Of a DNA stretch of 64,000 nt, positions 5,489 to 60,697 are shown in pieces (the stretch's first letter is position 1; the number at the start of each line of letters is the position of its first letter). The notes under the pieces were generated by a model. It made no database searches. It was given only the letters and a program-made list of their open reading frames with translations, and was not told the origin of the DNA. Made by a program: the position numbers and the translations under genes. Origin of the DNA: Squalus acanthias (Eukaryota); NCBI GenBank assembly GCA_030390025.1, contig JASTWF010000325.1, forward strand, positions 1 through 64,000, given 5' to 3'.

Positions 5489-5503
5489 CCCTTTCTCTTG
5501 CAG

Positions 5504-37105: not shown

Positions 37106-38372
37106 CTCAGTTTGGGTTCTGCCAGGACCACTCGGCTCCAGACCTCATTACAGCCTTGATCCAAACATGGACAAAAGAGCTGAATCCTGGAGGTGAGGTG
37201 AGAGTGACTGCCCTTGACATCAAGGCAGCATTTGACTGAGTGTGGCATCAAGGAGCCCTAGTTAAATTGAAGTCAATGGGAATCAGGGGGAAAACTCTCC
37301 ACTGACTGGAGTCATACCTAGCACAATGGAAGATGGTTGTGGTTGTTGGAGGCCAATCATCTCAGCTCCAGGACATCACTGCAGGAGTTCCTCAGGGCAG
37401 TGTCCTAGGCCCAACCATCTTCAGCTGCTTCATCAATGACCATCTCTCCATCATAAAGTCAGAAATGGGGATGTTCGCTGATGATTGCACAGTGGTTAGT
37501 TCCATTCACAACTCCTCAGATAATGAAGCAGTCCATGCCCACAAACAGCAAGACCTGGACAACATTCAGGCTTGTGCTGATAAGTGGCAAGTAACATTCG
37601 CAGTGCCAGGCAATGAACATCTCCAACAAAAGAGAGTCTAACCATCAACCCTTGACATTCAATGGCAATACTGTCGTCGAATCCCCCACCATCAACATCT
37701 TGGGGGGTCACCATTGACCAGAACCTTAACTGGACCAGCCACATAAATACTATGGCAACAAGAGCAGGTCAGAGGCTGGGTATTCTGCGACGAAACACTC
37801 ACCTCCTGACTCCCCAAAGCCTTTCCACCATCTACAAGGCACAAGTCAGGAGTGTGATGGAATACTCTCCACTTGCTAGGATGAGAGCAGCTCCAACAAC
37901 ACTCAAGAAGCTTGACACCATCCAGGACAAAGTAGCCCGCTTGATTGGCATCCCATCCACCACCTGAAACATTCACTCCCTCCACCACTGGTGCACCGTG
38001 GCTGCAGTGTGTACCATCTACAAGATGCACTGCAGCAACTCGCCAAGGCTTCTTCGGCAGCACATCTCAAATCTGTGACCTCTACCACCTAGAAGGACAA
38101 GGGCAGCAGGCACACGGGAACACCACCACCTCCAAGTACCCCTCCAAGTCACACACCATCCTGACTTGGAAATATATCGCCATTCCTTCATCGTCGCTGG
38201 GTCAAAATCCTGGAACTCCCTCCCTAACAGCACTGTGGGAGTACCTTCACCTCACGGACTGCAGCGGTTCAAGTAGGCAGCTCACCAGCACCTTCTCAAG
38301 GGCAACTAGGGATGGGCAATAAATGCTGGCTTTGCCAGCGATGGCCAGATCCCATGAACGAATAAAAAAAAT
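37106..38372 (+). mobile_element. 5'-truncated poly(A)-tailed LINE (CR1/L2/Jockey-group RT)
   Basis: ALDIKAAFD, GVPQGSVLGP, MFADD, YKAQVRSVMEY; AATAAAAAAAA tail. Confidence 0.85.
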
Positions 38373-39480
38373 GTTGTACCTCAGCCATGCCTTCTGCCTC
38401 CACCAATAGATCTCTATTTTGGTCCCTAATCGGCCCTATCACTGTTCTGACAAACCTTTTACTATTATTAATCCTATAGAAGACCTTTGAACTCCCTTTT
38501 ATGTTAGCCGCCACCAATCTATTCTGGTACTGTCTCTTTGTCCCTCTTATTTCCTTTTTCACTTCCCCTCTGTACTTTTTATATCCAGCCTGATTCTCCC
38601 TTGTATTATCAAGCTGGCATCTGTCATACACCCTTTTTTTCGGCTTCATCCTACTCTCTAACTCCTTCGTCATCCAGGGAGCTCTGACTTTGGTTGCCCT
38701 CCCTTTCCTCCTTGTGGGAATGTACCTAGACTGTACCCGCACCATCTCCTCTTTAAAGACTGTCCATGGCTCCATTACATTTCTGCCTGCCAGTCTTTGA
38801 CTCCAATTTACCCGGGCCAGATCCCTCATCAATTCACTGAAAGTAGCCCTCCCCCACTTATGTATTTTTATTCTAGATTTCTCCTTATTCTTCTCCATAA
38901 CTAATCTAAACCTTATGATACTATGATCACTATTCCCGAGATGCTCCCCGACTATAACATTCTCCACTTGACCCACTTCATTCCCAAGATTATTTCCAGC
39001 AATGCCTCCTTCCTCGTTGGGCAGGAAACATACTGATCAAGAAAATTCTGCTGAACACACTTCAGAAATTCCTGTCCTTTTCTGCCCTTAACACAATCAC
39101 TGCTGCATTCAATATTGGGGTAAAGTCTCCCATTATCACTACTCTATAGTACTTGCACCTCTCAGTGATTTCCCTGCAAATCTGCTCCGCTATCTCCTGC
39201 CCACTAGTTGGTGGCCTATAGAATACACCAAGTAGCGTAATAGCTCCTTTATTGTTTCTTAACTCCAATCAAATAGATTCTGTCTTTGACCCCTCCAGGA
39301 CATTCTCTCTTTCTAGCACTGTAATATTTTCCTTAATAAAACTGCTACCCCTCCTCCTGTTTTTCCTTCTCTATCTTTCCTGAATACCTTGTACCCAGGG
39401 ACATTAAGCATCCAATCCTCCTCTTTTTTGAGTCAGGTCTCTGTTATCGCCACTACATCATATTCCCACGTGGCTATTTG

Positions 39481-40003: not shown

Positions 40004-40575
40004 ACCTTATCAATCACACTTTGTACATTTACCCACATGCATTCCAAACCTAACTTAGACCTCTTTGTATTTTCTATGATCCCACCTAATTCTGTATTAT
40101 TTCTAACTCTAAGCAGGAAAAATTCGGTTGGGTAGTGCCTCTTGTTAGCGCCTCCGGGGGCGCTAACGGGACTCTAACGACTTACCGCCCGAGCGCGGCA
40201 ATTTTAGCGCCGCCCGCAAAATTGACCTGACGGTTTGCTGTGGCGCGAAACACTACCACCACGATCTCCTGCGCCCGGAGATCGTGACGTCATCGAAGCG
40301 TGCCCCAGACTGGAAATTGATTCTCGCCCCCTGCCGCTAGGAACGACAGGTAGAGGGGGAGGTTTTGCAGTCGACTGGGAGCTGGGGGTGCGCTATTTAA
40401 AGGCGGCGCTTCCTGCTTTTTCCAGTCGGCAAAATATTCTGCATACGCAGGTTGAGAGAGGGAGAGAGGCGTCTGGAGACACTTAACGCTGTCCTACAAG
40501 GAGTTTTGTTCCTCACCAACACTTTTCAGGTTCCCATTTCTGTCAGCTTTATCACTACCATATTTAGAAGATTAA

Positions 40576-41631
40576 ATGGGAGCTGTACTAGCACGGGGCC
40601 TTCGGAGGCAGCACAGGCGCAGAGAGAGAGTGGCAAATGTCAGAGGGCCAACTGGGCTCTGCACAGGAGACCTTACCCTCCCAGGGTATTCCGGGAGCAA
40701 TTCTCCCACATTCATCTGTCCGAGGAGCAGTGTTTTAGAAGGCTGCGCTTCAGCAAGGAGGGGGTCACTGAGCTTTGCCACCCCCTGCAGCCAGGGCTGC
40801 AGCCTCAGCTCAGGACCAGGATGTCTCTGTCGGTGGCAGTGAAGGTGACGGTGGCTCTCAATTTCTATGCCAGCGGCTCCTTCCAGGCTTCAACAGGGGA
40901 TATTGCGAACATCTCCCAATTCGCCATCCATCGTTACATCCGGGAGGTGACAAACGCTCTATACCAAAGGAGAAGGCAGTACATCTCTTTCCCCATGACC
41001 CGAGACAAACAGCGTGAACGCACATGTGGCTTTGCTAGGATAGCGGGCTTCCCCATGGTTCAGGGCGCCATTGACTGCACGCATGTGGCATTGCAAGCTC
41101 CTAATGAAAATGCAGAGGTTTTCCGCAACCGCAAAGGCTTCCACTCTCTGAACGTCCAGTTGGTTTGCAACCACAGACAGCGCATCCTCGCCTCAATGCC
41201 CGCTATCCTGGCAGCAGCCACAGTGCTTTCATCCTGTGCCAGACTGGTGTTCCAGACCTCTTCCAACCACTGCATCAACCTCGTGGCTGGCTCCTCGGGG
41301 ACAAGGGTTATCCACTCTTCACCTGGCTGATGACACCGCTCCGTAACCCCAACACTCCTGCTGAGCTCGCATACAATGAGAGCCATAGCGCCACTAGGAA
41401 CCTCACTGAACAGACGATCGGTGTGCTGAAGCAACGGTTCCGGTGTCTTGACCGCTCTGGAGGAGCCCTGCAGTACTCCCCCAATCGAGTCTCGGTTTTT
41501 ATTGTTGTGCGCTGCATGCTGCACAACTTCGTCATTCTGAGGACACAGCCATTGCCACCAGGGACTGGTGCACCACCTCAGGAGGAGGGAGAGGAGGGGG
41601 AGGAGGCGGAGGAGGAGGAGGATGAAGAGGA
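40576..41631 (+). pseudogene. Harbinger C transposase, frameshifted; C-terminus resumes at 51023-51112
   Basis: GAIDCTH, LLGDKGY; acidic tail split by the ERV insertion. Confidence 0.9.
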
Positions 41632-43253
41632 TGTAAGGGTTTGCGTGCGTGTCTCTCAGCCTGTGAGATTCACGCGGCTCTATGCAGCCTGTATGTCAGT
41701 GCGGGTTTAGGCCTTGTTGCCTGTTCTGGTCTCCAGCCAGTCTGGGAGCACTAGACACACCTGTGAGTGGTTCGAATCACTCGCCCTTACGGTTCTAGAC
41801 ACTGGACTTAGATGCGAGAGCAGTAATGGAGATGAAACTCATGTAGACTCGGTTGAATGGTACGAAATGGAAAAATCTTTATTGCATGATATTCAAGATT
41901 ACGAAATACATGTCATACAATCTTACACGCAGTTGTATAGCTAATTCTAGGGAAACGAGGAACGAACGACACACCGTAAATAGGGGCACACATTACAAGT
42001 ATCCTTAATACTTAAACCCTCCCCTATCAATATCTGTCCTAGCTAGATTCGTAGGATTCGAGACTCATGCTCACCACTCGTGATAACTCGGAGAAATTCC
42101 GAATAGCTGATCGGATGTTTTCACCACAGCACCCACGTGTCGATCAGGGGGTCTCCTGGTCCCACTTGTTTACTTGCTTCTGCTCCGGCTAGCAGGCTGG
42201 AACGTCTGCTGTGATGAAGATCTGTGTTGGTTGGTTTAACAGGCACTGTCCGGATGGGTTTCACAGACCAGTCAATATCATCTTGGAGGATCTTCCGAGG
42301 TCCGTTCTTGCAAGTTCAAAGAAGTCTCCCTGGCAAGGAAACTTGGCTATTCGACCTACAGGCGCGGTCGGGGCTTACTGACCATGGCGATGAGTATGGT
42401 CTTCCTCTCTTCTCATCTCATCTCATCTCATCTCATCTCATCTCGGGCCTTTGGTTCCGATGCCAGTTACCAACATAGGTCTTCGTTACGCGACACGAGG
42501 TAGATCCGAACGGATCATAAAGTTCAACAGTCTTTTTCAAAGAGGCACCAGGCAAGCAGGAACAAGACTACGAGTCAAAACACAGGAGCAGCCACGAGGA
42601 TACGAGTCGATCGGATAAGAGAAAGATGGACGGTTGGAGCTTGTAATTATAGTACAAAATCTTCCGTTTCCCGCCCAACCTTAATGCCCTTTCTTTTGTT
42701 TGGGTTTGGCGCTCAAATGTCTTGTATGGGTGATCTCCGTTCTTAATGGGTTTCGGGGCTACTCGTAAATGCCTGAGTACCTGTTAATATTTCTCCCATT
42801 GTTAAATCGGTCGGTGTTCTCCCTGGAGGGGTTTTGGGGCTTCCAAGTGTTTTGTATAACTACCCGCTAACGGCTCTCTCATCGTAGAGTCGTTGGGATT
42901 TTACATATTAATGTCTTTGGATGGGCCCTTGATTACTTGGTACAATAGCTTTCATTCGTACCTGGGAGACCGATTTCAGTATTTATGTGTATACTGCAAA
43001 CCCATAATGTCTCGTGTATTATCTTCAATGTGCTGAATCTTAATCGATCTTGCACAAATGTTTATTGGAACGCCATCTTGTCTGCCTGTCGAAGAGTCTA
43101 GAATGTTCTGTCACGAGGTGCGGCGGCCATTTTACAGGCTGCTTGTGTCCACTTTGAAAACCCTGACAGCATTCTGCTGAAATAAAAGCTGTTTGAACGA
43201 AACTCTGTGTTTTCTCCTTATTAATAAAATCGCGATATATTGCGAATTCTACA
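41632..43253 (-). repeat. 3' LTR
   Basis: Near-identical to 49376-51018; minus-strand AATAAA at 41878-83; TATA-like at ~42646; internal (CATCT)n. Confidence 0.97.
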
Positions 43254-43702
43254 GTCCCTCCTGTTGATGCGAATAACTCCGCTTATCGTATCAAAAATAA
43301 TAGTGGTGAGCAATATTATCTCGATTTTCTCCGAATCCAGAAAATTAATCCCATAACTTTAACCTAGCTAGGGTCTCTGTGTCGTCCTTATTTCCCAAGA
43401 AAATTACATTTTATATCACCGTAGGCATTATTTGCCTTTAAACTTACACCACTTGTTTTCCTTCCCGGCGTAACCAGGCCGATGCCTCTCGTATCACCTG
43501 TATATTCATCTTTTATTCAGGGAAAGGAAAAACAAAACCCAAAACCAAACAATCAATTTTAACTATCACACCATCACCAAAATAATTAACACCAACTCTT
43601 AAAACATGTCGAGTTCCCAACTTATTTACAATCTTTGAAAATCATGATCGAGTACAAACTTCCGCGGCGCACGTGGCGAGCGGGAGTGACGCCATTTTCC
43701 GA

Positions 43703-46054
43703 TCACACGGTGCTTTCATCGTGCACGCGCACGTAACGTTCTCGCCACTCTCCCGTGTTTTCATGCTTAGTGAGGCGTTTGTCTCTTTTACAATGTACGA
43801 CCAATAGGTACACTACAATAAAAACTTGACATACGACTAAAATGTGGGAGGCTATTCTGATCCATGAAGGCACTTCAATATTGGTGAACAGATTCCACCA
43901 CGGTGGAACTACTATATCCAGAATGTCTGTCCCTATTTCGACAGTTTTCTGTTCTAATGTGTAAAAATGTTTCTGTGACACCGCGACGGCTTTTAAAAGC
44001 TTGGTGAGGTGTTCAGGGAGAGGGGGAATGAGGTATCCGAAATGCGCGACGAATCGCTGCAAGTCGGTGAAATTCTCTTTTACTGTGAGATGAACAGTGG
44101 ATGGTTCAGGGATTGGGATAATTCGCTGTTGTGCTACTTGAACTTCCGCCCTGGGTTTGAAACAGAAACTGCTGTCACTCACCGGACACCGGCTACGGTT
44201 TCCATGCTGGTAGTGTTGCGCTGCAGTGGTAACACAATATGTTCCACCCCCGATGTATGCTACCTGCGGAGGCACATGATCTTGTGCCATTGCCTCCATG
44301 GTGCAATTCATGGACTTGGCGCCAGCCGTTCTGAACCCGCACTGTGGTGTTAAAAAGGCATTCAAGTGCTGGGGACACAGTATTATGTGTGCTCCCCTGC
44401 CACGAAAACCAGCGAGATCTGTACCTGTCATCGTTTGCTCCCAGCGGATGACGTAGGGTGGAACCGCTGCATAGCGAATGTGGGCTCCCCCCTGAATGAC
44501 ACCAATGTTCTCTACCCGATACACCGGGGCGGGCTTTGCTGTGTCGCCCAGAACCGGCATACGTAGTACTATACCCATAATGGTATGGTTTGATCGTCCG
44601 CAGTCCACGGGGACTGGGTAAGCTTCTGAAGCTAGCCTGAGCTGGCACGGGCTTAATGCGTTCTGAAAAGGGTGGAGCGCCCGCAGGTGTTTGTTACTTA
44701 TCCAGGACGGGACCAAACCTTGTTTTAAATCCTCCAAATTACTGCGGCCCTCGCCCAGTAACCACGCCCCGTAAAGCACGCACACCTCGTTCTGTGCAGC
44801 TTGATCGGATGCATTCCGATCTTCCCTAATCAGGGCATTTACCGTCTTTGCATGTTTCTCCAGCTCTGCTATAATTTCCTTTAAATGGAGAGTCATGGCT
44901 TGGTCCTCGTGTAGACCCGACCCTACCACTTTATTCTCATCTGTTAGAATGTCTTTTAATTGTGTCTTTAAACCATTAATCTGGGTCTGCAGCTCCACAC
45001 TGTCTAGAGCGTTGACCACAGATGTACCCGTGTTAAAAGCAGTGAACGCATCGTTCACTAAACCCCTTCTTTGCCTTCCTACTTGATCCAAAACTTCATG
45101 TGGTGCGGTGTACAAACTTGTTTTATCAATTTCCGCGAAATCGAATTCGTAAAATTGTCTGAACATCTTGGTCAACAGGACCTGATACAACTGTTCCGTC
45201 TTTTTGGGGCACCACTCTGGTAACCGCACCTCGGTGAGATTTAAAATCACCGAGGCCACCGCGTAATGTACCCCCTGAAATAGTATCTGGTCTGTGGGGA
45301 CCAGTACCAAACCATTCCCGGGTCCTTTACTAGTTTTAGGGCACCCTTCCTCTTCAGCTAGAACCACCGGAATCGTGGGCGGGGCTTTGCGTGGGCGCGT
45401 AATGAGCTCAGTGGCATTTACCGGGATCGAAGAGTATGGGGCTCCGCACCCCCTGGTGCTCGCATCCCACCTCATCCCCTGTCCGTTATCCTGCCACTGA
45501 TTAATGAAAAATATGGATATGCCTTTGGGGCAAGGGTATTTTGACCCCCACATGCATACATAAATTCCCTCGTCCGGTTCCCACCATTTGTCCCAACAGA
45601 CTCTCACTTGTCCGTTTGTCCCCGTAATTGTCCGATGGGTATTATTACCCAGTCGTTCCCACTCGACCGAAGAGTTCCTCATGTTTTTGCTCAGCTTTCG
45701 CAGCCACCACCATCGGCTCAATGGGACATTCCCACTACAAGTCAAACAAATCCGTTTGCCGACGGTGACGCTGATCCTGGGTGCGATGATCCTTACTTTG
45801 GGGCACATTAAAGAAGTCTCTTGGTAGGCAAACCCCGATGTGCTAGAATACTCCGTTGAGTTCGTTCCCAGCCATCCTGGCCACCTTCCCTTGTGGAAAT
45901 AGGTGGTGGTCTCCTCAGCCTCCCGTCTTCCGGTCCCATCCACCGCGATGGGGGCCGTGTCCCCGGAGCATCCGAACACCACGACATCCTTGGTGCGGCC
46001 TCGATAGGCCAATCCACATCCGATTGCCGCGAGCAATACTAGAATTCGTTCCAT
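43703..46054 (-). CDS. env: Envelope glycoprotein: signal peptide, Ig-like domain, class I F-like fusogen, TM segment, short tail (783 aa from Met54 of the ORF)
   Basis: MERILVLLAAIGCGLA signal; splice acceptor TCTATCTGATCACAG 13 nt upstream; RQRR|GLVNDAFTAF furin site and fusion peptide; heptad repeat; Cys-rich region; TM ILVVCQVFIVVYLLVV; multiple NxS/T sites. Confidence 0.88.
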   Translation of the reverse strand: MERILVLLAAIGCGLAYRGRTKDVVVFGCSGDTAPIAVDGTGRREAEETTTYFHKGRWPGWLGTNSTEYSSTSGFAYQETSLMCPKVRIIAPRISVTVGKRICLTCSGNVPLSRWWWLRKLSKNMRNSSVEWERLGNNTHRTITGTNGQVRVCWDKWWEPDEGIYVCMWGSKYPCPKGISIFFINQWQDNGQGMRWDASTRGCGAPYSSIPVNATELITRPRKAPPTIPVVLAEEEGCPKTSKGPGNGLVLVPTDQILFQGVHYAVASVILNLTEVRLPEWCPKKTEQLYQVLLTKMFRQFYEFDFAEIDKTSLYTAPHEVLDQVGRQRRGLVNDAFTAFNTGTSVVNALDSVELQTQINGLKTQLKDILTDENKVVGSGLHEDQAMTLHLKEIIAELEKHAKTVNALIREDRNASDQAAQNEVCVLYGAWLLGEGRSNLEDLKQGLVPSWISNKHLRALHPFQNALSPCQLRLASEAYPVPVDCGRSNHTIMGIVLRMPVLGDTAKPAPVYRVENIGVIQGGAHIRYAAVPPYVIRWEQTMTGTDLAGFRGRGAHIILCPQHLNAFLTPQCGFRTAGAKSMNCTMEAMAQDHVPPQVAYIGGGTYCVTTAAQHYQHGNRSRCPVSDSSFCFKPRAEVQVAQQRIIPIPEPSTVHLTVKENFTDLQRFVAHFGYLIPPLPEHLTKLLKAVAVSQKHFYTLEQKTVEIGTDILDIVVPPWWNLFTNIEVPSWIRIASHILVVCQVFIVVYLLVVHCKRDKRLTKHENTGEWRERYVRVHDESTV

Positions 46055-46365
46055 CCTTCCTTGGTTCCTGTGATCAGATAGAATGAGGTAGCCAGCCTCG
46101 CAAGAGTCTCTGGCTTTTGTGAAGGGTGAGCGGGTCCCCTGACCTCGCCTCACGTAAACTTCAACGTTCGCTGAATAAACTTTAACTAAACCTATCTCTA
46201 AAGCTCCCATCATTTTATCATTTTCTGTTAAAATTAAAACTACAAACTTAACCTGATTAAAACTATAAACTTATAACCTTAAACTATAAACTTAAACTTA
46301 AACTATGAACTTAAAACTTAAAACTTATTACTGTACAGCGCCGCCCGTTCTCAGGGCGGCCCCCT

Positions 46366-47562
46366 TTAAATTCTGAGAAGGCTGCTGCGAGCTCTTACCG
46401 ACTTTGGGAGGGCTCTGACCTTTTCCTCTGATCTGCCGCAGCCTGTTTCTGTACTGACCCCTCCCTCTGATCTGCCGCAGCCTGTTTCTGCACTGACCCC
46501 TTCCTCTGATCTGCCGCAGCCTGTTGCTGCTGCGATGGGGCCGGGCTGTATCTGGGCTGCCTTAACCTTGAGTCTGCGCCTTGGGACAGACTGGGGCCAT
46601 ACCCATATCTTCTTGGGCTGGGGTTCTCTACTTGACCTACGGGGAGTTGTCAGGGGCGGGGATCCCATGACCGACGGACCGGGTTCCGAGACTTCCATCG
46701 GGACGACCTGTGGTTCCACCACAGTCGCTGGCTCCGCCTCCGCTGACTCCGCCTCCCTAACCTCGGGGCTCGCAGTTTGTGGCTCCGCCCTGCTCGGCCC
46801 AGCAGGCGGCCCTTCACTCGCGATCTCTGCCTCCCCCGAGGGCGGGACGTTCAAAGCGGGCGGCTCGGGCTCGGAGGTTCTCACCGTCACTCCCTGTGGT
46901 CCCACAGCGGCTGGCTCCGCCTCCCCTAGCTCCTCCCTCCTGTGTTCGGGACCTGCAGCTTGTGGCTCCGCCCTGTGCGGATCTCCATCTGCAGTCCGTG
47001 TCCTCCCTATACCTAAAATGGGAACGCTCCTTACGTTCCCCAAAACCCACTCGTCTTCATCACTATCCTCATCTGACTCCCAACCCCACAAAAATGCTTC
47101 ATGATCTTCCAGGATGTCCCCTCCCCTGATGCAAGCTGCTTTGCCTGCCTGTGTGCCCTGTGGTCCTACCTGGGGCTGCGAGTCCCCACTCGCAGGTCTG
47201 GCCCCTCCCCTAAGACAGGCCACCGCCCCTGCTTGTTTCTGTGAAATCTCACCTGCTGGAGGCTGCAGATTTCTATCCTGTTTTAAATCCTCATACTCCC
47301 TGCTCCTGGCTACCCTGTAGGCTGCTTTTATCTCTCTAAGCTGCGCTTCTAGCCTGAGCACGTCTAACTTTCCCATTGAGCAGGCGTTCTCCTCCCGCAG
47401 GGCCTGCTCTCTAAGCTGCCCTTCCAGCCCATCTATTTTCCCTATTAAGCGGGCGTTCTCCTCCCGCAAGGCCTGCTCTTTTAACCTGGCCTCCTCACCG
47501 CAGACCCCCTCCTGTGCGTGTCTTTTAAAAGGACACAGGTAGGCAGGCTGCGTGGGCTCTAG
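46366..47562 (-). CDS. ORF X: 398 codons open in frame after the gag UGA; coiled-coil plus acidic/Pro-rich repeats, no enzyme motifs
   Basis: Frame continues CAA TGA CTA GAG CCC ACG.. without a stop to TAA at 46368-66; no early ATG. Confidence 0.7.
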   Translation of the reverse strand, partial: LEPTQPAYLCPFKRHAQEGVCGEEARLKEQALREENARLIGKIDGLEGQLREQALREENACSMGKLDVLRLEAQLREIKAAYRVARSREYEDLKQDRNLQPPAGEISQKQAGAVACLRGGARPASGDSQPQVGPQGTQAGKAACIRGGDILEDHEAFLWGWESDEDSDEDEWVLGNVRSVPILGIGRTRTADGDPHRAEPQAAGPEHRREELGEAEPAAVGPQGVTVRTSEPEPPALNVPPSGEAEIASEGPPAGPSRAEPQTASPEVREAESAEAEPATVVEPQVVPMEVSEPGPSVMGSPPLTTPRRSSREPQPKKIWVWPQSVPRRRLKVKAAQIQPGPIAAATGCGRSEEGVSAETGCGRSEGGVSTETGCGRSEEKVRALPKSVRARSSLLRI

Positions 47563-49371
47563 TCATTGGGGACTATTAGACGGTCCTGCGGCACCTACGG
47601 GGCCGGTAGCAACCGCCACCTTTCCATGTGCACTCAATAAACTGCGCATGGCTCCTAACACTACTTCGAGGTCGTCGGGAGGGGTGGGTGCACCAGCTTC
47701 CCTAGCCGGGACAGGCGCCTGGGCTCGGGCTGCGGGATTTTTATCCTTGGAATCCTTCCAAGGGTTCCTGCAATGCTTGCGCCAGTGCCCTGTCTTCCCA
47801 CACCCGTAACAAGCATTACTTGCCTGTGGGGCGCGATTACCCTCCTGATGCCACTCTCTTTGATACGGGGCTGCGGGTCGTACCTCATGTACTTTTCCCT
47901 TAAGGGGACGTGTTGCCATACCCCTTATATTGCGATATCCTAACGTGAGTCGATTCAAGACCGACTCTTCCGTAATGTTGGGGTCATTGGGATCAAACCA
48001 TGCTTTTGCCTGCTCTCTGACGGCTGGTAAACTGTTGGCTATTATGCACCTAAGCCAATGAGCTAAACCGGCGCCTTCCACATCTTCGCGCTCTGGCGCA
48101 CCTAGACAGCTGCGCTGATATACTGGCCACAGCCTGTCGGCAAAAACCTTCGGGGGTTCTCCCTCCATCTGCACTGTCTGTCCCACTCTAGCAAACGGAC
48201 CTTCATCGTCCGCCCCCAACACTTCCAGGACCTCATTCTTTAATGCCTCATAAGTCTTGGTTCCCCTCTTGCTCTCGCCCGAGAGACACTGAAGGATTGT
48301 ACTGCCTAACGAAAACAACAGCATTTTTGCTGTTTCCCCATCATCGCAGCCGTTAATGGCTGCGGTTTGCTCAACTTCCCTGAAATGTACGGAAGGGTCG
48401 TCTGACTCGGTCAGCTTCCGTACGTGATTTATCATAACTCTCAGCTGGTGTGAGCTGTGAGGCAACACAAGCTGGCCGAGGAGATCCCCTGGTTCCTCCC
48501 CACCGTTTCTGTTTGGGCCCCTTTTTATACCCGTTACTGGATACAACGGTCCCTTTTCCATTTCTTTCTCCATGGGCTCTTTCGTTTCTTCCATTGCTTC
48601 CTCCCTTACCCAGGTTTCCGAATAGCTGGGTGGCGCGGAGGGCGCAGTGGCTAATACTTCCTCTGCTTTACTTGGTGGGGATTTCTCAAACTCCTCACTT
48701 ACTAGCGGCTGGTGTGCTGACGGACTGATAAGGCACACCATGCCGTGCGCTTTGTTCACGGCCCTTTTGAGGTGCTCTATCTCCCTTTTGCAGGCGCTAT
48801 GATCGGCTCCCTGAAACTTATCCTCAAGGGCCAACTTATATGCCGCCCTAACCCCCGTTAAGCTCTCTTCCTGAGTTCTTATCTGGGCAGCTTGGCGGGC
48901 ACATCGTTCCTTTAACCTGCTCTCATTTAACTTTGCCTCAGTGACCTGGCACTCGAGGTAATCTATCCTTGTTTTATGGTGACTGGAGATTTCCTGGCGT
49001 TCTTGGTGCAGCGCACTTAAATTCCTAATGAGCAATTCCCCTCCAGAAACCTTCTCATCCATTTCTCCCTCTAAATGACTGATTCGAGCTGTTAGTGCTG
49101 TAATGGTCTGGTTTGAAATCTGGACCTGCCTTTTGTAACACATTAGCCAGACTGCTTTCTCGAGTGTCTTTTTATGTTCTTTACTATCTGTCCACCTTTC
49201 GGCTGCCTCTAGTGGGCTTTTATCCGCTAACAATTCACTTATCCATTTCTTAGTTAGATTAACCTTTCCGAACACATAATCTGCTATCTTTTCCTGCATA
49301 ACATTTCGTACAGTCATTCCAAAGTCTAACACACTACCCTCTCGCTGCCAGTGTCCTGCCGCGGTCGCCAT
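47563..49371 (-). CDS. gag: Gag (602 aa): coiled-coil N-terminus, PSAP/PPSY late motifs, capsid-like region, CCHC zinc knuckle
   Basis: CYGCGKTGHWRKHC; TAPSAPPSY; directly follows the 5' LTR. Confidence 0.9.
   Translation of the reverse strand: MATAAGHWQREGSVLDFGMTVRNVMQEKIADYVFGKVNLTKKWISELLADKSPLEAAERWTDSKEHKKTLEKAVWLMCYKRQVQISNQTITALTARISHLEGEMDEKVSGGELLIRNLSALHQERQEISSHHKTRIDYLECQVTEAKLNESRLKERCARQAAQIRTQEESLTGVRAAYKLALEDKFQGADHSACKREIEHLKRAVNKAHGMVCLISPSAHQPLVSEEFEKSPPSKAEEVLATAPSAPPSYSETWVREEAMEETKEPMEKEMEKGPLYPVTGIKRGPNRNGGEEPGDLLGQLVLPHSSHQLRVMINHVRKLTESDDPSVHFREVEQTAAINGCDDGETAKMLLFSLGSTILQCLSGESKRGTKTYEALKNEVLEVLGADDEGPFARVGQTVQMEGEPPKVFADRLWPVYQRSCLGAPEREDVEGAGLAHWLRCIIANSLPAVREQAKAWFDPNDPNITEESVLNRLTLGYRNIRGMATRPLKGKVHEVRPAAPYQREWHQEGNRAPQASNACYGCGKTGHWRKHCRNPWKDSKDKNPAARAQAPVPAREAGAPTPPDDLEVVLGAMRSLLSAHGKVAVATGPVGAAGPSNSPQ
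49353..49370 (-). promoter_or_regulatory. Primer-binding site, tRNA-Arg (TCG-type)
   Basis: TGGCGACCGCGGCAGGAC is complementary to the 3' end ..GTCCTGCCGCGGTCG-CCA of vertebrate tRNA-Arg (tRNA sequence from memory). Confidence 0.8.
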
Positions 49372-49375
49372 TTTC

Positions 49376-51018
49376 TGTAAGGGATTTGACGTGCGTGTCT
49401 CTCAGCCTGTGAGATTCACGCGGCTCTGTGCAGCCTGTATGTCAGTGCGGGTTTAGGCCTTGTTGCCTGTTCTGGTCTCCAGCCAGTCTGGGAGCACTAG
49501 ACACACCTGTGAGTGGTTCGAATCACTCGCCCTTACGGTTCTAGACACTGGACTTAGATGCGAGAGCAGTAATGGAGATGAAACTCATGTAGACTCGGTT
49601 GAATGGTACGAAATGGAAAAATCTTTATTGCATGATATTCAAGATTACGAATACATGTCATAAGCACAGATTAATGACAGTACAATCTTACACGCAGTTG
49701 TATAGCTAATTCTAGGGAAACGAGGAACGAACGACACACCGTAAATAGGGGCACACATTACAAGTATCCTTAATACTTAAACCCTCCCCTATCAATATCT
49801 GTCCTAGCTAGATTCGTAGGATTCGAGACTCATGCTCACCACTCGTGATAACTCGGAGAAATTCCGAATAGCTGATCGGATGTTTTCACCACAGCACCCA
49901 CGTGTCGATCAGGGGGTCTCCTGGTCCCACTTGTTTACTTGCTTCTGCTCCGGCTAGCAGGCTGGAACGTCTGCTGTGATGAAGATCTGTGTTGGTTGGT
50001 TTAACAGGCACTGTCCGGATGGGTTTCACAGACCAGTCAATATCATCTTGGAGGATCTTCCGAGGTCCGTTCTTGCAAGTTCAAAGAAGTCTCCCTGGCA
50101 AGGAAACTTGGCTATTCGACCTACAGGCGCGGTCGGGGCTTACTGACCGTGGCGATGAGTATGGTCTTCCTCTCTTCTCATCTCATCTCATCTCATCTCA
50201 TCTCATCTCGGGCCTTTGGTTCCGATGCCAGTTACCAACATAGGTCTTCGTTACGCGACACGAGGTAGATCCGAACGGATCATAAAGTTCAACAGTCTTT
50301 TTCAAAGAGGCACCAGGCAAGCAGGAACAAGACTACGAGTCAAAACACAGGAGCAGCCACGAGGATACGAGTCGATCGGATAAGAGAAAGATGGACGGTT
50401 GGAGCTTGTAATTATAGTACAAAATCTTCCGTTTCCCGCCCAACCTTAATGCCCTTTCTTTTGTTTGGGTTTGGCGCTCAAATGTCTTGTATGGGTGATC
50501 TCCGTTCTTAATGGGTTTCGGGGCTACTCGTAAATGCCTGAGTACCTGTTAATATTTCTCCCATTGTTAAATCGGTCGGTGTTCTCCCTGGAGGGGTTTT
50601 GGGGCTTCCAAGTGTTTTGTATAACTACCCGCTAACGGCTCTCTCATCGTAGAGTCGTTGGGATTTTACATATTAATGTCTTTGGATGGGCCCTTGATTA
50701 CTTGGTACAATAGCTTTCATTCGTACCTGGGAGACCGATTTCAGTATTTATGTGTATACTGCAAACCCATAATGTCTCGTGTATTATCTTCAATGTGCTG
50801 AATCTTAATCGATCTTGCACAAATGTTTATTGGAACGCCATCTTGTCTGCCTGTCGAAGAGTCTAGAATGTTCTGTCACGAGGTGCGGCGGCCATTTTAC
50901 AGGCTGCTTGTGTCCACTTTGAAAACCCTGACAGCATTCTGCTGAAATAAAAGCTGTTTGAACGAAACTCTGTGTTTTCTCCTTATTAATAAAATCGCGA
51001 TATATTGCGAATTCTACA
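49376..51018 (-). repeat. 5' LTR
   Basis: Differs from the 3' LTR by ~2 substitutions, three 1-bp indels and one 20-bp indel (by eye). Confidence 0.97.
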
Positions 51019-51415
51019 AGGAGAATCAGCAGCAGCAACGTGGGAGGGAGGCGCTCAATGTTGCCTCTTCAAGGGCCGTCTGGGAACGCCTGATAAGACA
51101 CCGCTTCAGATGAATGACAGAGAAGATGGCTTTTGGGATGAAGAAGCACATCATCGCAACCATCCCGTAGCCCCTATTACCAAGCAAAGCTCCAATGAGT
51201 AAAATGAGCAAAGTTGTCAATTTTCAATTAAAAAAATTATTTTTCTGACAAACTGTGTCTTATTAAGCACAACCAATACCAAACAAACACAGTTCATTAA
51301 CAAACACAACTGGTTCTTACCACATCGAGATAAGCGTTAACAGAGTGAACAAGATATTAACATAAACATCCAACTTTGGGACAAACATTCCCCCCATTTG
51401 TTTGAGAATTTTTAG

Positions 51416-54822: not shown

Positions 54823-55898
54823 GGGCCAGAAATTCGTTATAGCCAAGGAATGGGCGGTGTTGAGACTAAAAATGGTTAAGTAGCGCCAGTTGAAAAATCA
54901 TCTAGACTGCACACAAAATTCGTCCTCACGCCTCATTAAAATGATTGCAGTCCTGATTCTCATCTAAAAACCCAAGCTCATTGGTGTTACACTGAAAAGA
55001 TGGGCCAATATCAGGTGTAGTCTAAAGGTAAGTAGTGATTGCCACAGGCTTTTTTCACTACTTAAAGGGGAGGCCCATTGATGCTGAAGCACCTCATTCT
55101 CAGCATTGTTGGGTGTGCAGCTGCCTCAACAACCATAAGAAGAAGGACAAGGATAAGGAGCAATTATTTACAAATGCTGATGGCAGATCGCTGCCCCAGG
55201 GAGAGAGCCTGGAGGTTTTCCAAAGAAGCTTTGGAAGCATTGGTTTTAGGGAGAGAAGGTGGGCAGTCCTGTACCAACTGGCAGGAGGCCCTCGCCACAA
55301 GTCTGCTGGACTATGTGGAGGGAGGTGGCACACCACGTCATGGGCAGCACTGTGGTCTCCAGTTCCCACACCCAGTGCAGGAGGAAGTTTCATGAGCTCA
55401 CACAGGTAGTCAGGGTGAGTGAAGGCTTCAACAAATGCTAATTACCACCATCTGTACCACAAGCTTCACACACTGCTCAATGTACCACACCCCCAGCACT
55501 CACCCACCAACAATCTCTACCTAGCAACACTCACACCCACATCTCACACCTTGCACACAATGACAGCTATTCAACTTTGGCAGGCACAAGGGTCATTAGT
55601 TATTAGAATTCATGTGCTATGTGTGATATGTTTATAGATAAATTTATTAATGGTGTTTGGAATATTTTGTGGTCTCTCTCATTTCACCTTTGCGCCCAGG
55701 AGCATGCTGTGATATGGCGTGAGACAGGGGTGGTATGATGGGGATGTGGTGAGCAATGGGGATCTGGGGTTTCATTCATGCGAATCGGAGTCTGATGAGC
55801 CGATCACGGACAGCCCATCCGGAAGGCCGATTGACTCGCTGCCTCCGCCCTCCCTCCTGTTCCTCCTCCTCCTCGTTCTCTTCCTCCTCGTCCTCCTC
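54823..55898. mobile_element. Old Harbinger remnant: TIR-like GGGCCAGAAATTCG, Myb exon 1 (+), transposase C-terminus (-, ~55775-55898)
   Basis: PRERAWRFS..HTQCRRKFHELTQVVR|GTGAGT; minus-strand acidic tail then AVRDRLIRLRF. Confidence 0.75.
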
Positions 55899-56492
55899 CT
55901 AATTGGAGGCGGTATCAGCGGCAGCGGTATTTAAACAGCGGGAGACCGGGCAGCGCGGTCCTAATTGGAGGCGGTATCAGCGGCGGTATTTAAACAGCGG
56001 GAGACCGGGCAGCGCGGGCCTAATTGGAGGCGGTATCAGCGACGGTATTTAAACAGCGGGAGACCAGGCAGCGCGGTTCTAATTGGAGGCGGTATCAGCG
56101 ACGGTATTTAAACAGCGGGAGACCAGGCAGCGCGGTCCTAATTGGAGGCGGTATCAGCGACGGTATTTAAACAGCGGGAGACCAGGCAGCGTGGTCCTAA
56201 TTGGAGGCGGTATTAGCGGCGGTATTTAAACAGTGGGAGACCGGGCAGCGCGGACCTAATTGGAGGCGGTATTAGCGGCGGTATTTAAACAGCGGGAGAC
56301 CGGGCAGCGCGGTTCTAATTGGAGGCGGTATTAGCGGCGGTATTTAAACAGCGGGAGACCAGGCAGCGCGGTTCTAATTGGAGGCGGTATTAGCGGCGGT
56401 ATTTAAACAGTGGGAGACCGGGCAGCGCGGTTCTAATTGGAGGCGGTATTAGCGGCGGTATTTAAACAGCGGGAGACCGGGCAGCGCGGACC
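55899..56492 (+). repeat. 10 x 59-bp tandem monomers at the 5' end of a CR1
   Basis: Unit CTAATTGGAGGCGGTATCAGCGGCGGTATTTAAACAGCGGGAGACCGGGCAGCGCGGTC; starts at 55899, 55961, 56020 ... 56433. Confidence 0.93.
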
Positions 56493-57227
56493 GGTGAGTG
56501 TAAAGAAGTAAAAAGTAATCAAAATGTGACGTCACCAGAAAGCAGGTAAGTGATTGGTTGGTGAGTATTTCTCTATTACTCGCTTTCTTCCAAACTTGGG
56601 CTTCTAAATTTAAGTGCCTTGGTGTAGATTAAAAGATATACGTGTTCCAAATTTTAAAAAATGAATGAATTAATTAATTGAGATGAGAGACCAGGCAATG
56701 TGTTGTTGTTGTTGCATGTGGGAGCTGGTGGACACCATTGAGGTCCAAGGCGACCACATCTGCAGCAAATGTTGGCTGCTCGAGGAACTTCGGCTCACAG
56801 TTGATGAGCTGGAGTCCGAGCTTCAGACACTGCGACACATTAGGGAGGGGGAGCGTTACCTGGACACTAAGGGGTAGAAATTAGGTCGCGCCCCATTTGG
56901 GGCGCAAATATCGTCCGCGCGCAAATATTAGCGCCTGGCGCTAATTATCGGCACTGACAGGAAACTTCACTTTTACCGCCCCGGGAGGTGAGTGGAGCGC
57001 TAAATTAGGCGCTGCACACCTCTCTTAAGGCGCAAAGGCCTAGGAGTGAGGCGCTACCTCAGCGCACGAGCGCAGCGCAGCTGCTGCCAGTTAGCGAGGG
57101 AACACAGACACACTGGCGCCGGACACTTCTTAAAGCGGGAGGGGCCACTTGCTCCCCAGCCACACCCTGCTCATTGCAGCCTTGAATCTCAGCCTGGAGA
57201 GACCTGTAATCCATTTTGCTGCCAAGC

Positions 57228-59246
57228 ATGGAGAGGGTGAGAGAACGCGCTCATCGCTTCACCGAGCGGGCCTTGGATGCTCTGGTTGATGCAGTGGAGC
57301 GCAGACGATGCATGCTGTTCCCGGAGAGTGGCAGGAGGCCTTTGCCACGCGAGTTCAGAAGAGTGTGGAGGGAGGTGGCTCAGAGCGTCTCCTCCAGGAG
57401 CATGGTGCCCAGGACCCATGTCCAGTGCCGCAAAAAGTTCAACGACCTCACTCGGGTCGTCAGGGTGAGTGGCTTTTTCTCAATACCTCTCCATCCCTCC
57501 ATCTCAACCTCACTCTATGGCCAGAGGGTCTTAAAACCCCAATGCACAACACTCATGCAACACCTATGGCCCTTTCATCAAACACACACACACATTCCAC
57601 ACTTTGCATACAGTAAGGGCTATTCACCTATGGGAGGCACATCAGGCAAGACCATGGCTGCATACAGTAAGGGCTATTCACCTATGGGAGGCACATCAGG
57701 CAAGACCATGGCTGCATACAGTAAGGGCTATTCACCTATGGGAGGCACATCAGGCAAGACCATGGCTGTATATTGTAAGGGCTATTCACCTATGGGAGGC
57801 ACATCAGGCAAGACCATGGCTGTATATTGACTCAGATGCTGTCCTTTTTCCTGCAGGCTAAGCTGGCTCATAATCGGAGACAGCAGCAACGGACGGGTGG
57901 AGGGCGGCTTCAGCTGCAACCCCTCAGCGATCTGGAGGAGCGCGTCCACAGGATTGTGGCAAGCCGGGTGATCGGTCCCGTCGCCACTGGAGACGCCGAC
58001 CCCGTTGTGGACAGCAATGGTAAGGTCATCACCTTTTTGTCCTCTGTCCTTCCACTTGTCCCTCACAATACCAGCCTTTGACACTTTCAATCCAACTTGC
58101 TAACTCGCTGCACTTATTCCTCCCTTACTGCCACCCTGTCCTCACGCTAAAGCCACTCTTGTACCTCCCTGCTTTCAGATGGTGATTCACCAGCTGAGGA
58201 GATGGTCCCTGAAGCTGCCACTGGGAGTGATGCTGCAGCTGAGGAGGAAGAGGAAGCCGGAGCATCAGTGCCACCCTCTCCCGAGGAAGCCCATGGCCAC
58301 ACTGGGAACACGCCTTCCCCGGAGGGGAGCAGGGGGGAAGGGGCTGATGATGGTGAAGTTCCAGGACCCAGCGGGCTGCAGCAACGCCATTGGGGGGGGA
58401 GGGAAGAACGGGGGAGCAGGGGGGAAGGGGCTGATGATGGTGAAGTTCCAGGACCCAGCGGGCTGCAGCAACGCCATGGGGGGGGGGAGGGAAGAACGGG
58501 AGCCTTCTCCCCAGAGGGAGAGTATGCCAGACACTCCTAATGCAAGGGACGCAGAGGAGGAGCGGCTGATTGCAGAAATGAACAGCCAGGCGGTGGGCAT
58601 GCACACTGAGCTCATGGGTGCAGTGGGAAGGGTGCCCGAATGCATTGAGGCACTGGCAAGGAGTGTGGAGCACTTCGCTGTAGCACAGGCGGATGCCACA
58701 CTAAAGCTTACTGCTGCAATTCAGTCACTGGCTGCCAGGAACCCATCTGAGACTGCTCTCATGCAGACTCAGATTGAGGCCACGCGAGCACTGACTGCTG
58801 CCATCCTCGATGGTTCGTGCACATGTCCCCGGGGCTGTCACCGCGCCGCAGCAGGCCAGCAATCTGTTCTCCGGCAAATTGCTCCGGATGCTGAAGTGCT
58901 GCCCCGTGGGAGTGCCAGTGTGTCGGGCGAGCAGGGAGTTGCTGTCCTCTCTCACGATGACAGCATTCCTGCTGCCAACACTGTCACTTCTCCACTGCAC
59001 TTGCCACCGCCTGTAGGACAGACTGCTGCCGCCCATGCAGAGTTGGTGCAGTCTGCAGCCGGGCCCTCCAGGCCCAGAAGTGGTCGAGGCCGTCCTTCAG
59101 GGGCATCTGCAGTGTCAGGGTCTGACAAGCAGCAGCCTTCCACCAGCCTTGCTGCAGCCACTGAGGTCCCATTACGGAGGAGCAGTAGGGTTAGAAGGGG
59201 GGAAGTGCGCAAGGGAAGGAGATCACCCTCGAAGGGCAAAAAGTAG
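57228..59246 (+). pseudogene. Harbinger B Myb-like gene with an 87-bp duplication and a +1 frameshift in a G-run (~58480)
   Basis: Alignment by eye to 18044-19866. Confidence 0.85.
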
Positions 59247-59540: not shown

Positions 59541-60697
59541 CTAGAAGCGGCTTGCTATTAGTCGTTGACGGACGGCCCTTGCAGTTTGACCATTGTGGGC
59601 CGCCCTCCTGCCTTGGTGCTGCTGCTGATCATCGTCCTCGGCCTGTTCCTCCTCTTCCTCCTCCTCCTCTTGTGGTGCTGCAAGGCCTGGTGGCATTGGC
59701 TGCGTCCTGAGGATTGCCATGTTGTGCAACATGCAGCACACCACTACGAATTTGGAAACTTGCTCAGGCGAGTACTGCAGGGCTCCTCCGGAATGGTCCA
59801 GACAGCGGAATCGTTGTTTGAGCACGCCGATTGTGCGCTCAATAATGTTCCTCGTTGCTTGTTGGCTTTCCTGGTACTGCAGCTCAGCAGGGGTGTTTGG
59901 CGCACGGAGCGGTGTCATCAGCCAGGTGCTCAATGCGTACCCCTTGTCCCCCAGAAGCCAACCAACTGGCTGATGCGGTGCCTCGAAAATTTCTGCCACA
60001 GTACTCTGGCGCAGGATGAAAGCATCGTGGCAGCTGCCCGGATAGTGGGCATTGACAGCGAGAATCACCTGTCTGTGGTCACAGACCAACTGCACATTCA
60101 AGGAATGGAACCCCTTTCTGTTCCGGAACTCCTCTGCATTCTCTCGCGGAGCACGCAAAGCCACATGCGTGCAGTCAATGGCGCCCTGCACCATGGGGAA
60201 GCCCGCTACCCTCGCAAAGCCCATAGCACGGTCATGCTGCTTGTCTGGGGTCATAGGGAAGGAGATGAAGTCTCGTCTCCTTGTGAAGAGGGCATTGGTA
60301 ACCTGCCGGATGCAGCGATGCACCGCAAACTGGGAGATATTGGCGAGGTCCCCAACAGCAGCTTGGAATGAGCCAGTGGCGTAGAAGTTCAAAGCCACTG
60401 TGACCTTCACTGCCACCGACAGAGACGTCCTGGACCTCAGCTGAGGCTGCAGATCTGGCTGCAGCAGGTGGCAGAGCTCAGTGACCACCTCCTTGCTGAA
60501 TCGCAGCCTTCGCAAACACAGCTCCTCGGACATGTGGATGTAGGAGAGCTGTTCACGATATACCCTGGGAGGGTAAGCTCTCCTGTACATGCGCCTGATG
60601 GCCCTCCTCCGTCTGGCCATCATTGCCACTCTCTGTCTGCGTCTCTCCTCCGATTGAGCTGGAGCAGGACGACGCCCCCAATCATTGCAGCCCCCAT
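59541..60697 (-). pseudogene. Harbinger B transposase; 4-bp deletion near 60645 frameshifts the N-terminus, catalytic core still open (362 aa)
   Basis: Copy A GTCTCTGTATCCTCCG versus copy B GTCTCTCCTCCG. Confidence 0.85.

Follow-up and report, generated by a model that had tools for sequence, protein, structure and literature searches.

An endogenous retroviral Env of Squalus acanthias in which a probable Ig-like domain precedes a predicted paramyxovirus F-like fusogen

The window analysed in this report is a stretch of 64,000 nucleotides from Squalus acanthias (assembly GCA_030390025.1, contig JASTWF010000325.1, positions 1 to 64,000). It holds on its minus strand, at 41632-51018, a long terminal repeat (LTR) element that encloses an env open reading frame (ORF) and reads, in order, 5' LTR, gag, a composite ORF2, env and 3' LTR, with no pol in this copy. 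We focused on env and performed a computational analysis of its product, which is predicted to be a fusogen with the fold of paramyxovirus and pneumovirus F proteins and which carries, between its signal peptide and the fusogen, a probable immunoglobulin (Ig)-like domain. Its features are given below, with residues counted from the first ATG at nt 46213. HRA and HRB are heptad repeats A and B, DI and DII are domains I and II, TM stands for transmembrane, AF2 for AlphaFold2 and pLDDT for predicted local distance difference test.

43703..46213, minus strand: env ORF, 836 codons plus stop, probable start at M54 (nt 46054)
45998..46054, minus strand: signal peptide, aa 54-~72, the hydrophobic MERILVLLAAIGCGLA from M54 (MERILV...), found by reading the sequence
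45803..45997, minus strand: N-terminal segment, aa 73-137, with a RWPGWLG.NST motif, kept only among cartilaginous-fish relatives; AF2 pLDDT below 50
45509..45802, minus strand: Ig-like (V/I-set-like) domain, aa ~138-235, with CxxC at 156-159, W170 and DEGIYVC at 214-220
45344..45508, minus strand: Pro-rich linker, aa 236-290, running up to the conserved CP...GP.nG motif with which the F2-like core begins
45065..45343, minus strand: F2-like segment, aa 291-383, β-hairpin strands and a helix, ending in RQRR
44723..45064, minus strand: F1-like N-terminus, fusion-peptide-like at aa 384-~404, then long HRA helices at aa ~405-497
44120..44626, minus strand: β-rich DI/DII-like core, aa ~530-698, AF2 pLDDT 79-96
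43910..44014, minus strand: HRB-like helix, aa 734-768, an AF2 helix at model residues 450-484
43706..43861, minus strand: TM anchor (aa ~785-808) and 28-aa cytoplasmic tail with YVRV (YxxPhi)

This layout, with an N-terminal signal peptide and a single C-terminal TM anchor in the sole Kyte-Doolittle window above 1.5 (aa 781-811), is that of a type I protein. M54 is the likely true start of env, because the ratio of nonsynonymous to synonymous differences per site (pN/pS) among the genomic copies described below is 0.76 in aa 1-53 against 0.07 in aa 54-836. The polybasic RQRR (aa 380-383, nt 45065-45076) is followed by GLV, and R-x-K/R-R stands at the aligned place in the relatives P0001, P0011, P0012 and P0019. 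The part after the cleavage site is 453 aa long, and its β-rich core holds five cysteines that are invariant columns in the alignment of the env family (C613, C625, C637, C660 and C684). A motif scan found neither CX6CC, the mark of a gamma-type Env, nor any CC pair anywhere in env; the immunosuppressive domain was not searched as a motif. An earlier note on this DNA, made by reading the letters alone, had already pointed to the signal peptide, C159, W170, C220, a Pro-rich linker (the Pro-rich stretch itself being aa 269-291), RQRR and the TM anchor, and to a long post-cleavage part without CX6CC, and all of these lie at the residue numbers that it gave. These numbers are correct as counted from nt 46213; the start coordinate given with them, 46054, is M54 and belongs to a different origin.

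The first important finding concerns the fold of the fusogen. For aa 285-790, AF2 gave from a 38-row alignment a model whose mean pLDDT is 71.2, with 79-96 in the β-rich core. Searched with Foldseek against the PDB, this model gave 244 matches at E<=1e-3, and among the matches listed every one is a paramyxovirus or pneumovirus F protein, including those of human parainfluenza virus 3 (5.6e-11), respiratory syncytial virus (RSV; 3.8e-10), Langya virus (4.1e-9), Newcastle disease virus (NDV; 5.5e-8) and parainfluenza virus 5 (PIV5), over ~500 columns. VIA-align, run against 48,161 representative chains, aligned nine F proteins over 279-346 residues, with Z 9.9-11.8—among them NDV (11.8), PIV5 (11.3), human metapneumovirus (11.0), RSV (10.8) and measles (10.3)—against ~5.3 for unrelated coiled coils. 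Domains I to III superpose on those of solved F proteins (Foldseek 5.6e-11 to 1e-6, and VIA), the F2-like strands at model residues 10-41 (pLDDT 85-94) align to their F2 parts, and HRA and HRB are predicted where an F protein has them, as helices after the fusion-peptide-like segment and before the TM anchor. In BFVD, a library of predicted viral structures, the best matches include lispi/arlivirus glycoproteins (1.2e-13), baculovirus F (Ld130; 1.5e-12), human parainfluenza virus 1 F (2.1e-10) and a fish filovirus glycoprotein, and insect errantivirus Env is grouped with the lispi/arlivirus and baculovirus proteins among these best fold matches (E 1.2e-13 to 1.5e-12); one relative, P0038, has a sub-threshold Pfam Baculo_F match (E 0.0011). 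On this model the env fusogen almost certainly has the paramyxovirus/pneumovirus F fold, which agrees with the earlier note's proposal of an F-like fusogen rather than a gamma-type TM subunit.

The second finding is the Ig-like domain that precedes this fusogen. VTVGKRICLTC (aa 149-159, nt 45769-45737), W170 and DEGIYVC (aa 214-220, nt 45574-45554) form an Ig signature in which C156/C159, W170 and the D.G.Y.C element are canonically spaced. When the env protein was shuffled 200,000 times, D.G.Y.C turned up in 371 shuffles and the full pattern, C-x(9-15)-W-x(35-65)-D.G.Y.C, in only 33; the signature is therefore not a product of chance. A profile of the domain (A5) built from five sequences—frog and other N-terminal domains were misaligned by MAFFT and left out—has 40 matches among PDB sequences at E<=1, which are Ig-type by title save for a G-protein alpha chain at E 0.9; the best are weak, namely a single-chain antibody fragment (0.002), CRTAM (0.014) and CD8a (0.021), and the PDB matches of the Ig part as a single sequence lie at E ~0.7. 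Wherever the nearest ESM-Atlas clusters are assigned to Pfam families, these are Ig families (score 0.91), and a low-confidence AF2 model of aa 54-300, from a 12-row alignment, shows seven strands in the expected order over aa ~152-222 (pLDDT 50-59). Judged from these patterns, aa ~138-235 very probably adopt an Ig-like sandwich fold. The earlier note's claim of an Ig domain ahead of the fusogen thus stands as regards the signature and the weak Ig-type sequence matches, and lacks a confident fold model at pLDDT 50-59. The CxxC (CLTC, aa 156-159, window 45737-45748) falls in the predicted B strand and recurs as CLVC, CLSC, KCTC or CFTC in cartilaginous-fish relatives; in gamma-type Envs a CxxC in the surface subunit (SU) pairs with the CX6CC of the TM subunit, which is absent here.

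The env gene is neither a lone copy nor a decayed one. A six-frame search of the 3.7-Gb assembly flagged 13,990 candidates and scored 54 of them. Each of these 54 aligns with the full Env at 98-100% identity, which puts the number of env copies at 54 or more, and 51 have no internal stop. Thirty copies (the window's and 29 others) were aligned for a pairwise test of selection. All 30 are ungapped and free of internal stops, they are ~1-2% apart in nucleotides, and every one keeps C159, W170, C220 and RQRR. For aa 54-836, pS is 0.059 and pN 0.004, a synonymous excess of ~15-fold per site; by part, pN/pS is 0.18 in the Ig-like domain and 0.04-0.06 in the F-like parts. With a ratio this low across 30 copies, env has been under purifying selection while the family multiplied, a pattern that, from the work of Belshaw and colleagues on HERV-K, is said to be the usual argument for spread by reinfection. 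The family is a recently active LTR retrovirus of a cartilaginous fish. With at least 54 LTR-flanked copies, env is not taken to be a domesticated host gene. At one locus (L013) the copies stand in a tandem LTR-internal-LTR-internal arrangement, the two internal regions sharing one LTR and the env copies lying 7.7 kb apart, and another env pair is 12 kb apart. Sequencing runs under five organism labels each hold about half of the 31-mers sampled from env; near-identical env sequence thus occurs under several organism labels, be they several related species or one. None of these runs, 14 from six studies, is on record as RNA; contigs from four of them were short and fragmented by repeats and showed no env splice junction, which speaks neither for nor against splicing.

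Relatives of this Env were sought in protein databases. An exhaustive phmmer search of 1.84 billion representatives returned 49 proteins at E<=1e-3, each either a relative of this env or a gene model into which pieces of env are fused, and a profile search of a 5.8-billion protein set with seven full-length relatives added only two fragments. The sources named among the 20 of these 49 that were looked up are six sharks, a skate, a coelacanth, an eel and two frogs. No host Ig protein matching only aa 138-235 is among the 49, and no donor gene is detectable, which leaves without support the earlier suggestion of an Ig domain captured from the host; because the same architecture is found in distant shark and frog relatives, any capture would be old or recurrent. 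In the eel, coelacanth and P0037 proteins the CP...GP.nG motif that opens the core comes directly after the signal peptide. It is preceded by 150-240 extra residues in the window Env (~220 aa), P0012, P0019, P0035, P0011 and P0021. Searches of PDB sequences with three of these extra domains gave rows that are Ig-type by title: 58 for P0012, a bamboo shark protein that UniRef names "Ig-like domain-containing protein" (best E 0.004), 28 for P0019, from a frog (best E 0.0033), and 11 for P0035 (best E 0.19). A tree of the F core, from ten near-full-length rows drawn from the 49 matches plus cluster members (fragments were left out), has a cartilaginous-fish clade and a second clade with eel, coelacanth, frogs and the P0035/P0037 pair. 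Since proteins with and without the Ig-like module occur in both clades, the module would either have arisen early and then often been lost or replaced, or have been acquired several times over at one site. The frog model P0058, whose Pol is 41% identical over 1,004 residues to the Pol of the window family, ends in a signal peptide and a V-set-like domain 48% identical to the start of P0035; this Pol type is therefore joined to an Ig-like-first, F-like Env in a frog too. The env/pol family is already present in databases in mis-annotated form: the gene models P0002, P0007, P0010, P0038 and P0058 fuse env or pol pieces to host genes (Niban-like, a C2H2 zinc-finger protein, cadherin, fbxo15) or misname the Pol, which is called "NYNRIN-like".

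Our comparison with known fusion proteins highlights both similarities and differences. With paramyxovirus and pneumovirus F proteins, the window Env shares a type I protein that a polybasic site would divide into F2-like and F1-like subunits, the succession of HRA, β-rich DI/DII core, HRB and TM, and a predicted fold that aligns over ~280-350 residues. It differs from them in having no sequence-level similarity, in the ~220 extra residues, including the Ig-like domain, between signal peptide and F2-like strands, in a much less hydrophobic fusion-peptide region and in its origin, a retrovirus without an HN/H/G-type partner gene; no second glycoprotein gene was seen between the LTRs of the window copy or in a pol-bearing copy. 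Foamy Env (gp130) likewise has a long TM subunit and an F-like fusion core. Its chains 8rm0 (prefusion) and 8rm1 (postfusion) reach VIA Z 8.4 against our model, below the F proteins, with 8rm0 aligned over 279 residues at a root-mean-square deviation of 5.5, and feline foamy Env is matched at E 3.5e-4 in BFVD. However, the window Env has no match to a Pfam foamy Env family at E<=1, and its family has a gag Cys-His knuckle and a pol in the gag frame past a stop codon, neither of which foamy viruses are known to have; nor is their receptor-binding domain known to be an N-terminal Ig-like module. Predicted structures of epsilonretrovirus Envs also match the F-like model in BFVD (walleye epidermal hyperplasia virus 1, E 6e-8; walleye dermal sarcoma virus, E 2.6e-4), and gag-stop-pol in one frame together with a 4-bp duplication are gamma/epsilon-like traits; no named epsilonretrovirus Env is among the 20 phmmer matches that were looked up. 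The receptor-binding domain of gammaretrovirus SU and herpes simplex gD are both β-sandwich attachment modules that stand beside or N-terminal to a fusion machine, but their partners are a gamma-type TM or gB/gH-gL rather than an F-fold fusogen in the same chain.

What the literature holds on such Envs can be told briefly. F-like retroviral Envs are already known. They are documented on LTR retroelements of invertebrates in a study that found no vertebrate endogenous retroviruses (ERVs) homologous to the invertebrate elements and in whose available text "Immunoglobulin" and "Ig-like" occur 0 times (10.1101/2023.10.26.564294). Epsilon Envs are placed outside the beta and gamma Env classes, and modelling of their SU failed, according to the available text of another (10.1101/2021.11.05.467493). 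XtERV-S was rejected as the published form of this element, its env being described as gamma-type with CX6CC in the accessible part of the paper (PMC8278194), and the accessible parts of the papers on Troyka (PMC12440569), on endogenous viral elements (PMC11521997) and on ERV structure (PMC13709493) contain no description of this env. A search of the full-text literature, which does not cover subscription journals, found no paper that joins lokiretroviruses with immunoglobulin or an ERV with an F-like and an Ig-like domain. An N-terminal Ig-like module on an F-like Env, in a very young high-copy family of a cartilaginous fish, appears to be new.

For the place of the family among retroviruses the evidence is indirect and comes from its Pol, which is 89% identical to one database protein, 43-45% to the frog and coelacanth "NYNRIN-like" models, ~29-31% to gamma-like Pols (those with Gag_p30 or MLV-IN domains) and ~30% to Ty3/gypsy. 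Among PDB sequences it matches the reverse transcriptase (RT) of murine leukemia virus (1.2e-69), foamy protease-RT (3.3e-64), Ty3 (2e-52) and human immunodeficiency virus (~1e-15), and the integrase of prototype foamy virus is the only integrase among the PDB matches listed. In published work on foamy-like ERVs of sharks and frogs, as far as the available text goes, a frog element is placed among shark ones and no gene but pol was detected (Aiewsakun & Katzourakis 2017, PMC5512871); that paper and a later one (PMC10699275) both state that the shark spuma-like ERVs yielded no env gene or Env domain. On this ground the shark-frog foamy-like clade is a candidate home for the window family. It is conceivable, though we hold it doubtful, that the window Env belongs to basal "foamy-like" (class III-like) retroviruses, as the unrecognised Env of their shark-frog branch.

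We favour, with some confidence, the reading that env encodes a class I F-fold fusogen with an Ig-like attachment module and belongs to a recently active retrovirus of a cartilaginous fish. After removal of the signal peptide, a furin-type protease would cut at RQRR383|G384 and yield an N-terminal subunit (aa ~73-383) with the lineage-specific segment, the Ig-like domain, the Pro-rich linker and the F2-like strands, and an F1-like subunit (aa 384-836) with the fusion-peptide-like start, HRA, the β-rich core, HRB, the TM anchor and the YxxPhi tail. In most accounts an F-type fusogen either depends on a separate attachment protein or binds through its F core. Here, in a fusogen that lacks such a partner, the Ig-like domain may be the receptor-binding module, and receptor engagement would then trigger HRA/HRB refolding by analogy with F proteins. 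Receptor binding is the most likely role of the module, and we put the chances that it is the actual one at about even.

Several results weigh against this reading. On the side of the fusogen, Pfam gives env no significant match to any family; PF00523 (Fusion_gly) in particular is absent at E<=1 in env and absent in all 34 relatives scanned (32 at E<=0.1; two further ones, together with seven of those 32 again, at E<=10). A search of PDB sequences with a profile of the F part had no significant match, the best being the heptad repeat 2/TM region of a coronavirus spike (E 0.014), and the segment past RQRR is only mildly hydrophobic and was not flagged in the hydropathy scan. On the side of the Ig-like domain, Pfam Ig_3 scores 11.9 bits in env (E 0.34) against a cut-off of 30 and 17 bits (E 0.0085), still below threshold, in the best relative, the 50%-identical P0009, and V-set, whose cut-off is 26, reaches 14.4 bits in P0035. 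Confidence in the AF2 model of aa 54-300 is poor (mean pLDDT 38, rising to 50-59 in the Ig part), and its antibody-titled Foldseek matches, all weaker than E 1e-3 (best 0.012), carry little weight in a PDB rich in antibodies. The hhalign comparison of A5 with the N-terminal domains of P0035, P0019 and P0011 gave probabilities of 0.1-0.9%, and with no link between these domains a single origin of the module is unproven. In addition, the low pN/pS could partly reflect copying from a few master elements. The low-confidence model, the lack of any Pfam Ig family at threshold in env or the relatives scanned, PDB sequence matches that are all weaker than E 1e-3 and a conserved CxxC that is unusual for an Ig B strand would all fit a lineage-specific Cys-containing domain at aa 138-235 that merely shares a short motif with Ig. 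We consider this quite improbable in view of the rarity of the correctly spaced motif among shuffles, the Ig-type matches (by title only) that four divergent domains drew in four PDB searches (40, 11, 28 and 58 rows), the Ig families carried by the ESM-Atlas neighbours, the seven predicted β strands in the expected order and the name that UniRef independently gave to the bamboo-shark relative. A real Ig-like domain might also act as a glycan shield, immune decoy or triggering clamp while the F-like core attaches, as F alone can in some pneumoviruses. The eel, coelacanth and P0037 relatives, which keep the F core without an N-terminal extension, imply that the core can stand alone, five of the ten N-x-S/T sites lie in the N-terminal subunit, and in the Ig part pN/pS reaches three times the value of the F parts, as expected of an exposed immune-facing surface. 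That part is nevertheless under clear purifying selection, its signature is kept in all 30 copies, and a module that is Ig-like by weak matches occurs in both main branches of the env tree; a shield, decoy or clamp is, in our judgement, unlikely.

Two other explanations concern the element rather than the domain. The earlier note had assumed a loki env, in which case the Ig-like domain would be a lineage-specific insertion in an ordinary lokiretrovirus Env. Published lokiretrovirus Envs are indeed F-like (PF00523 at E 2.2e-7 for Loki-Str) and are described in the available text as having a signal peptide, an RXKR site, a fusion peptide, a coiled coil and a TM domain (Wang & Han 2020, PMC7947760); the window Env resembles them in the F-like reading, the signal peptide, the polybasic site and a P-G-P..G-type motif that opens the mature protein. 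Furthermore, the family's Pol has a tether plus RNase H and Integrase_H2C2, and three host species of env relatives (eel, coelacanth and Xenopus tropicalis) are marked positive in the available supplement of the loki screen (PMC7947760). However, the five loki Env consensus N-termini examined (Bsp, Aro, Pma, Xla and Xtr, from the available material) have the core directly after the signal peptide, without an Ig-like extension, whereas the window Env has its ~220-aa extension and no PF00523 match. The earlier note had named an Ig domain already standard in loki Envs as a finding that would lower the novelty; these five N-termini have none, and in the main texts of the 2020 (PMC7947760) and 2022 lokiretrovirus papers, as available, "immunoglobulin" occurs 0 times. 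The X. tropicalis relatives P0051 (env) and P0062 (Pol) are, by eye only, plainly unlike the consensus Env and integrase of Loki-Xtr, the "NYNRIN-like" models of frog and coelacanth are the nearest Pols, and the available supplement puts no positive mark on any of the six cartilaginous-fish genomes checked (one row reads "Orectolobiformes, Chondrichthyes, 3, 0"; PMC7947760). The loki label is thus doubtful, and we think it unlikely that the element is a lokiretrovirus. The env ORFs might, on the other hand, be mere passengers, spread by intracellular retrotransposition or segmental duplication and open only by virtue of their youth; the copies are indeed only ~1-2% apart, tandem LTR-internal-LTR-internal arrays exist, and a pol-less variant occurs at three or more sites. 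Youth alone, however, would give a ratio near 1 throughout, whereas aa 54-836 show the ~15-fold synonymous excess and only aa 1-53 drift almost freely, which makes this explanation highly improbable. An F-fold fusogen with an Ig-like attachment module remains the reading that we prefer.

The element that carries env was delineated by comparing its two arms and, for its interior, by taking the upstream 10 kb from eight other genomic copies. Its remaining features are as follows.

49376..51018, minus strand: 5' LTR, 1,643 bp, TG...CA ends (blastn of the two arms)
49353..49370, minus strand: primer-binding-site-like TGG... 18-mer, 5 nt past the LTR, overlapping the first ATG of the gag ORF
47563..49371, minus strand: gag ORF, 602 aa, with one C-x2-C-x4-H-x4-C zinc knuckle and a coiled-coil-rich N-terminal third
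47196..47531, minus strand: pol-deletion junction, where pol-bearing copies hold ~3.6-3.7 kb extra (protease, RT, tether, RNase H and integrase)
46366..47469, minus strand: composite ORF2, 367 aa, of which aa 89-182 and aa 176-367 match two different frames of a pol-bearing copy (tblastn)
43254..43265, minus strand: polypurine-tract-like AACAGGAGGGAC, adjoining the 3' LTR
41632..43253, minus strand: 3' LTR, 1,622 bp (blastn of the two arms, MAFFT)
51019-51022 (upstream copy) and 41628-41631 (downstream copy): 4-bp target-site duplication TCCT, its ends read from the sequence

Aligned with MAFFT, the two LTRs differ by 10 mismatches in 1,621 columns plus one 20-bp and one 1-bp indel. The first gag ATG lies inside the primer-binding-site-like 18-mer (window 49353-49371), 5 nt past the 5' LTR, and gag translation may start at a downstream Met instead. 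The gag zinc knuckle is visible as a motif, with Pfam zf-CCHC only at E 0.28, and the window gag is 98.8% identical to that of a pol-bearing copy. Six of the eight other copies have the extra ~3.6-3.7 kb at window 47531/47196, which according to Pfam codes for protease, RT, a degenerate RNase H "tether", RNase H and integrase. This pol lies in the gag frame behind a stop codon (in the one pol-bearing copy examined) and is a single frame of at least 1,075 codons in four of the six copies and split in two. The pol-less gag-plus-env form is not limited to the window: two of the eight copies, at loci L011 and L013, have the same junction, from which it follows that a non-autonomous variant with intact gag and env has itself spread. 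ORF2, in which 88 coiled-coil residues unmatched in the compared pol-bearing copy are followed by an integrase tail and then by a repeat-bearing pre-env frame, is probably a by-product of the pol deletion. The pre-env region between the end of pol and env (46366-46700) consists of tandem repeats overlapping at a 39-nt offset (77-nt matches) that encode a repeated G-C-G-R-S-E-E-G-V-S peptide; its frame is open in the window copy, as it is in the one pol-bearing copy looked at.

Elsewhere in the window there are two PIF/Harbinger-type DDE_Tnp_4 transposase genes, one next to the 3' LTR and split over two frames (40452-41710, plus strand), the other a single 362-aa ORF (59541-60629, minus strand). 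By eye, a C-terminal integrase fragment at 63328-63999 (minus strand), cut off by the end of the window, belongs to a different LTR element, and several fragments resembling the endonuclease or ORFs of long interspersed nuclear elements lie among 38296-38976 (minus strand), 61256-61849 (plus strand) and 62317-63114 (plus strand). At 55803-56610, over ~800 bp, a 59-bp unit is repeated in tandem as ten overlapping copies set 59 nt apart; a 54-bp tandem array at 57605-57874 encodes a repeated peptide in a 204-aa ORF. Window 1-6000 shows extreme strand asymmetry (GC skew ~-0.78, AT skew ~+0.4), which suggests a long simple or satellite-like tract.

These findings bear on the biology of retroviruses in several ways. 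They would extend F-fold Envs to retroviruses of cartilaginous fish, add a data point on where retroviral env genes came from, and offer, in a natural single chain of Ig-like module and F core, a system in which to study how receptor binding is coupled to F-type triggering. Should the window Env prove to be the Env of the shark-frog foamy-like branch, an F-fold fusogen with a swappable N-terminal Ig-like attachment module would be an old and widespread retroviral entry machine, one that would link the Envs of loki, foamy and perhaps epsilon retroviruses to the F proteins of negative-strand RNA viruses. For the host, the very low pN/pS over dozens of intact copies makes the family a candidate case of germline invasion, recent or still under way, in a group that has been little studied, and the family may still be spreading by reinfection in the genome of Squalus acanthias.

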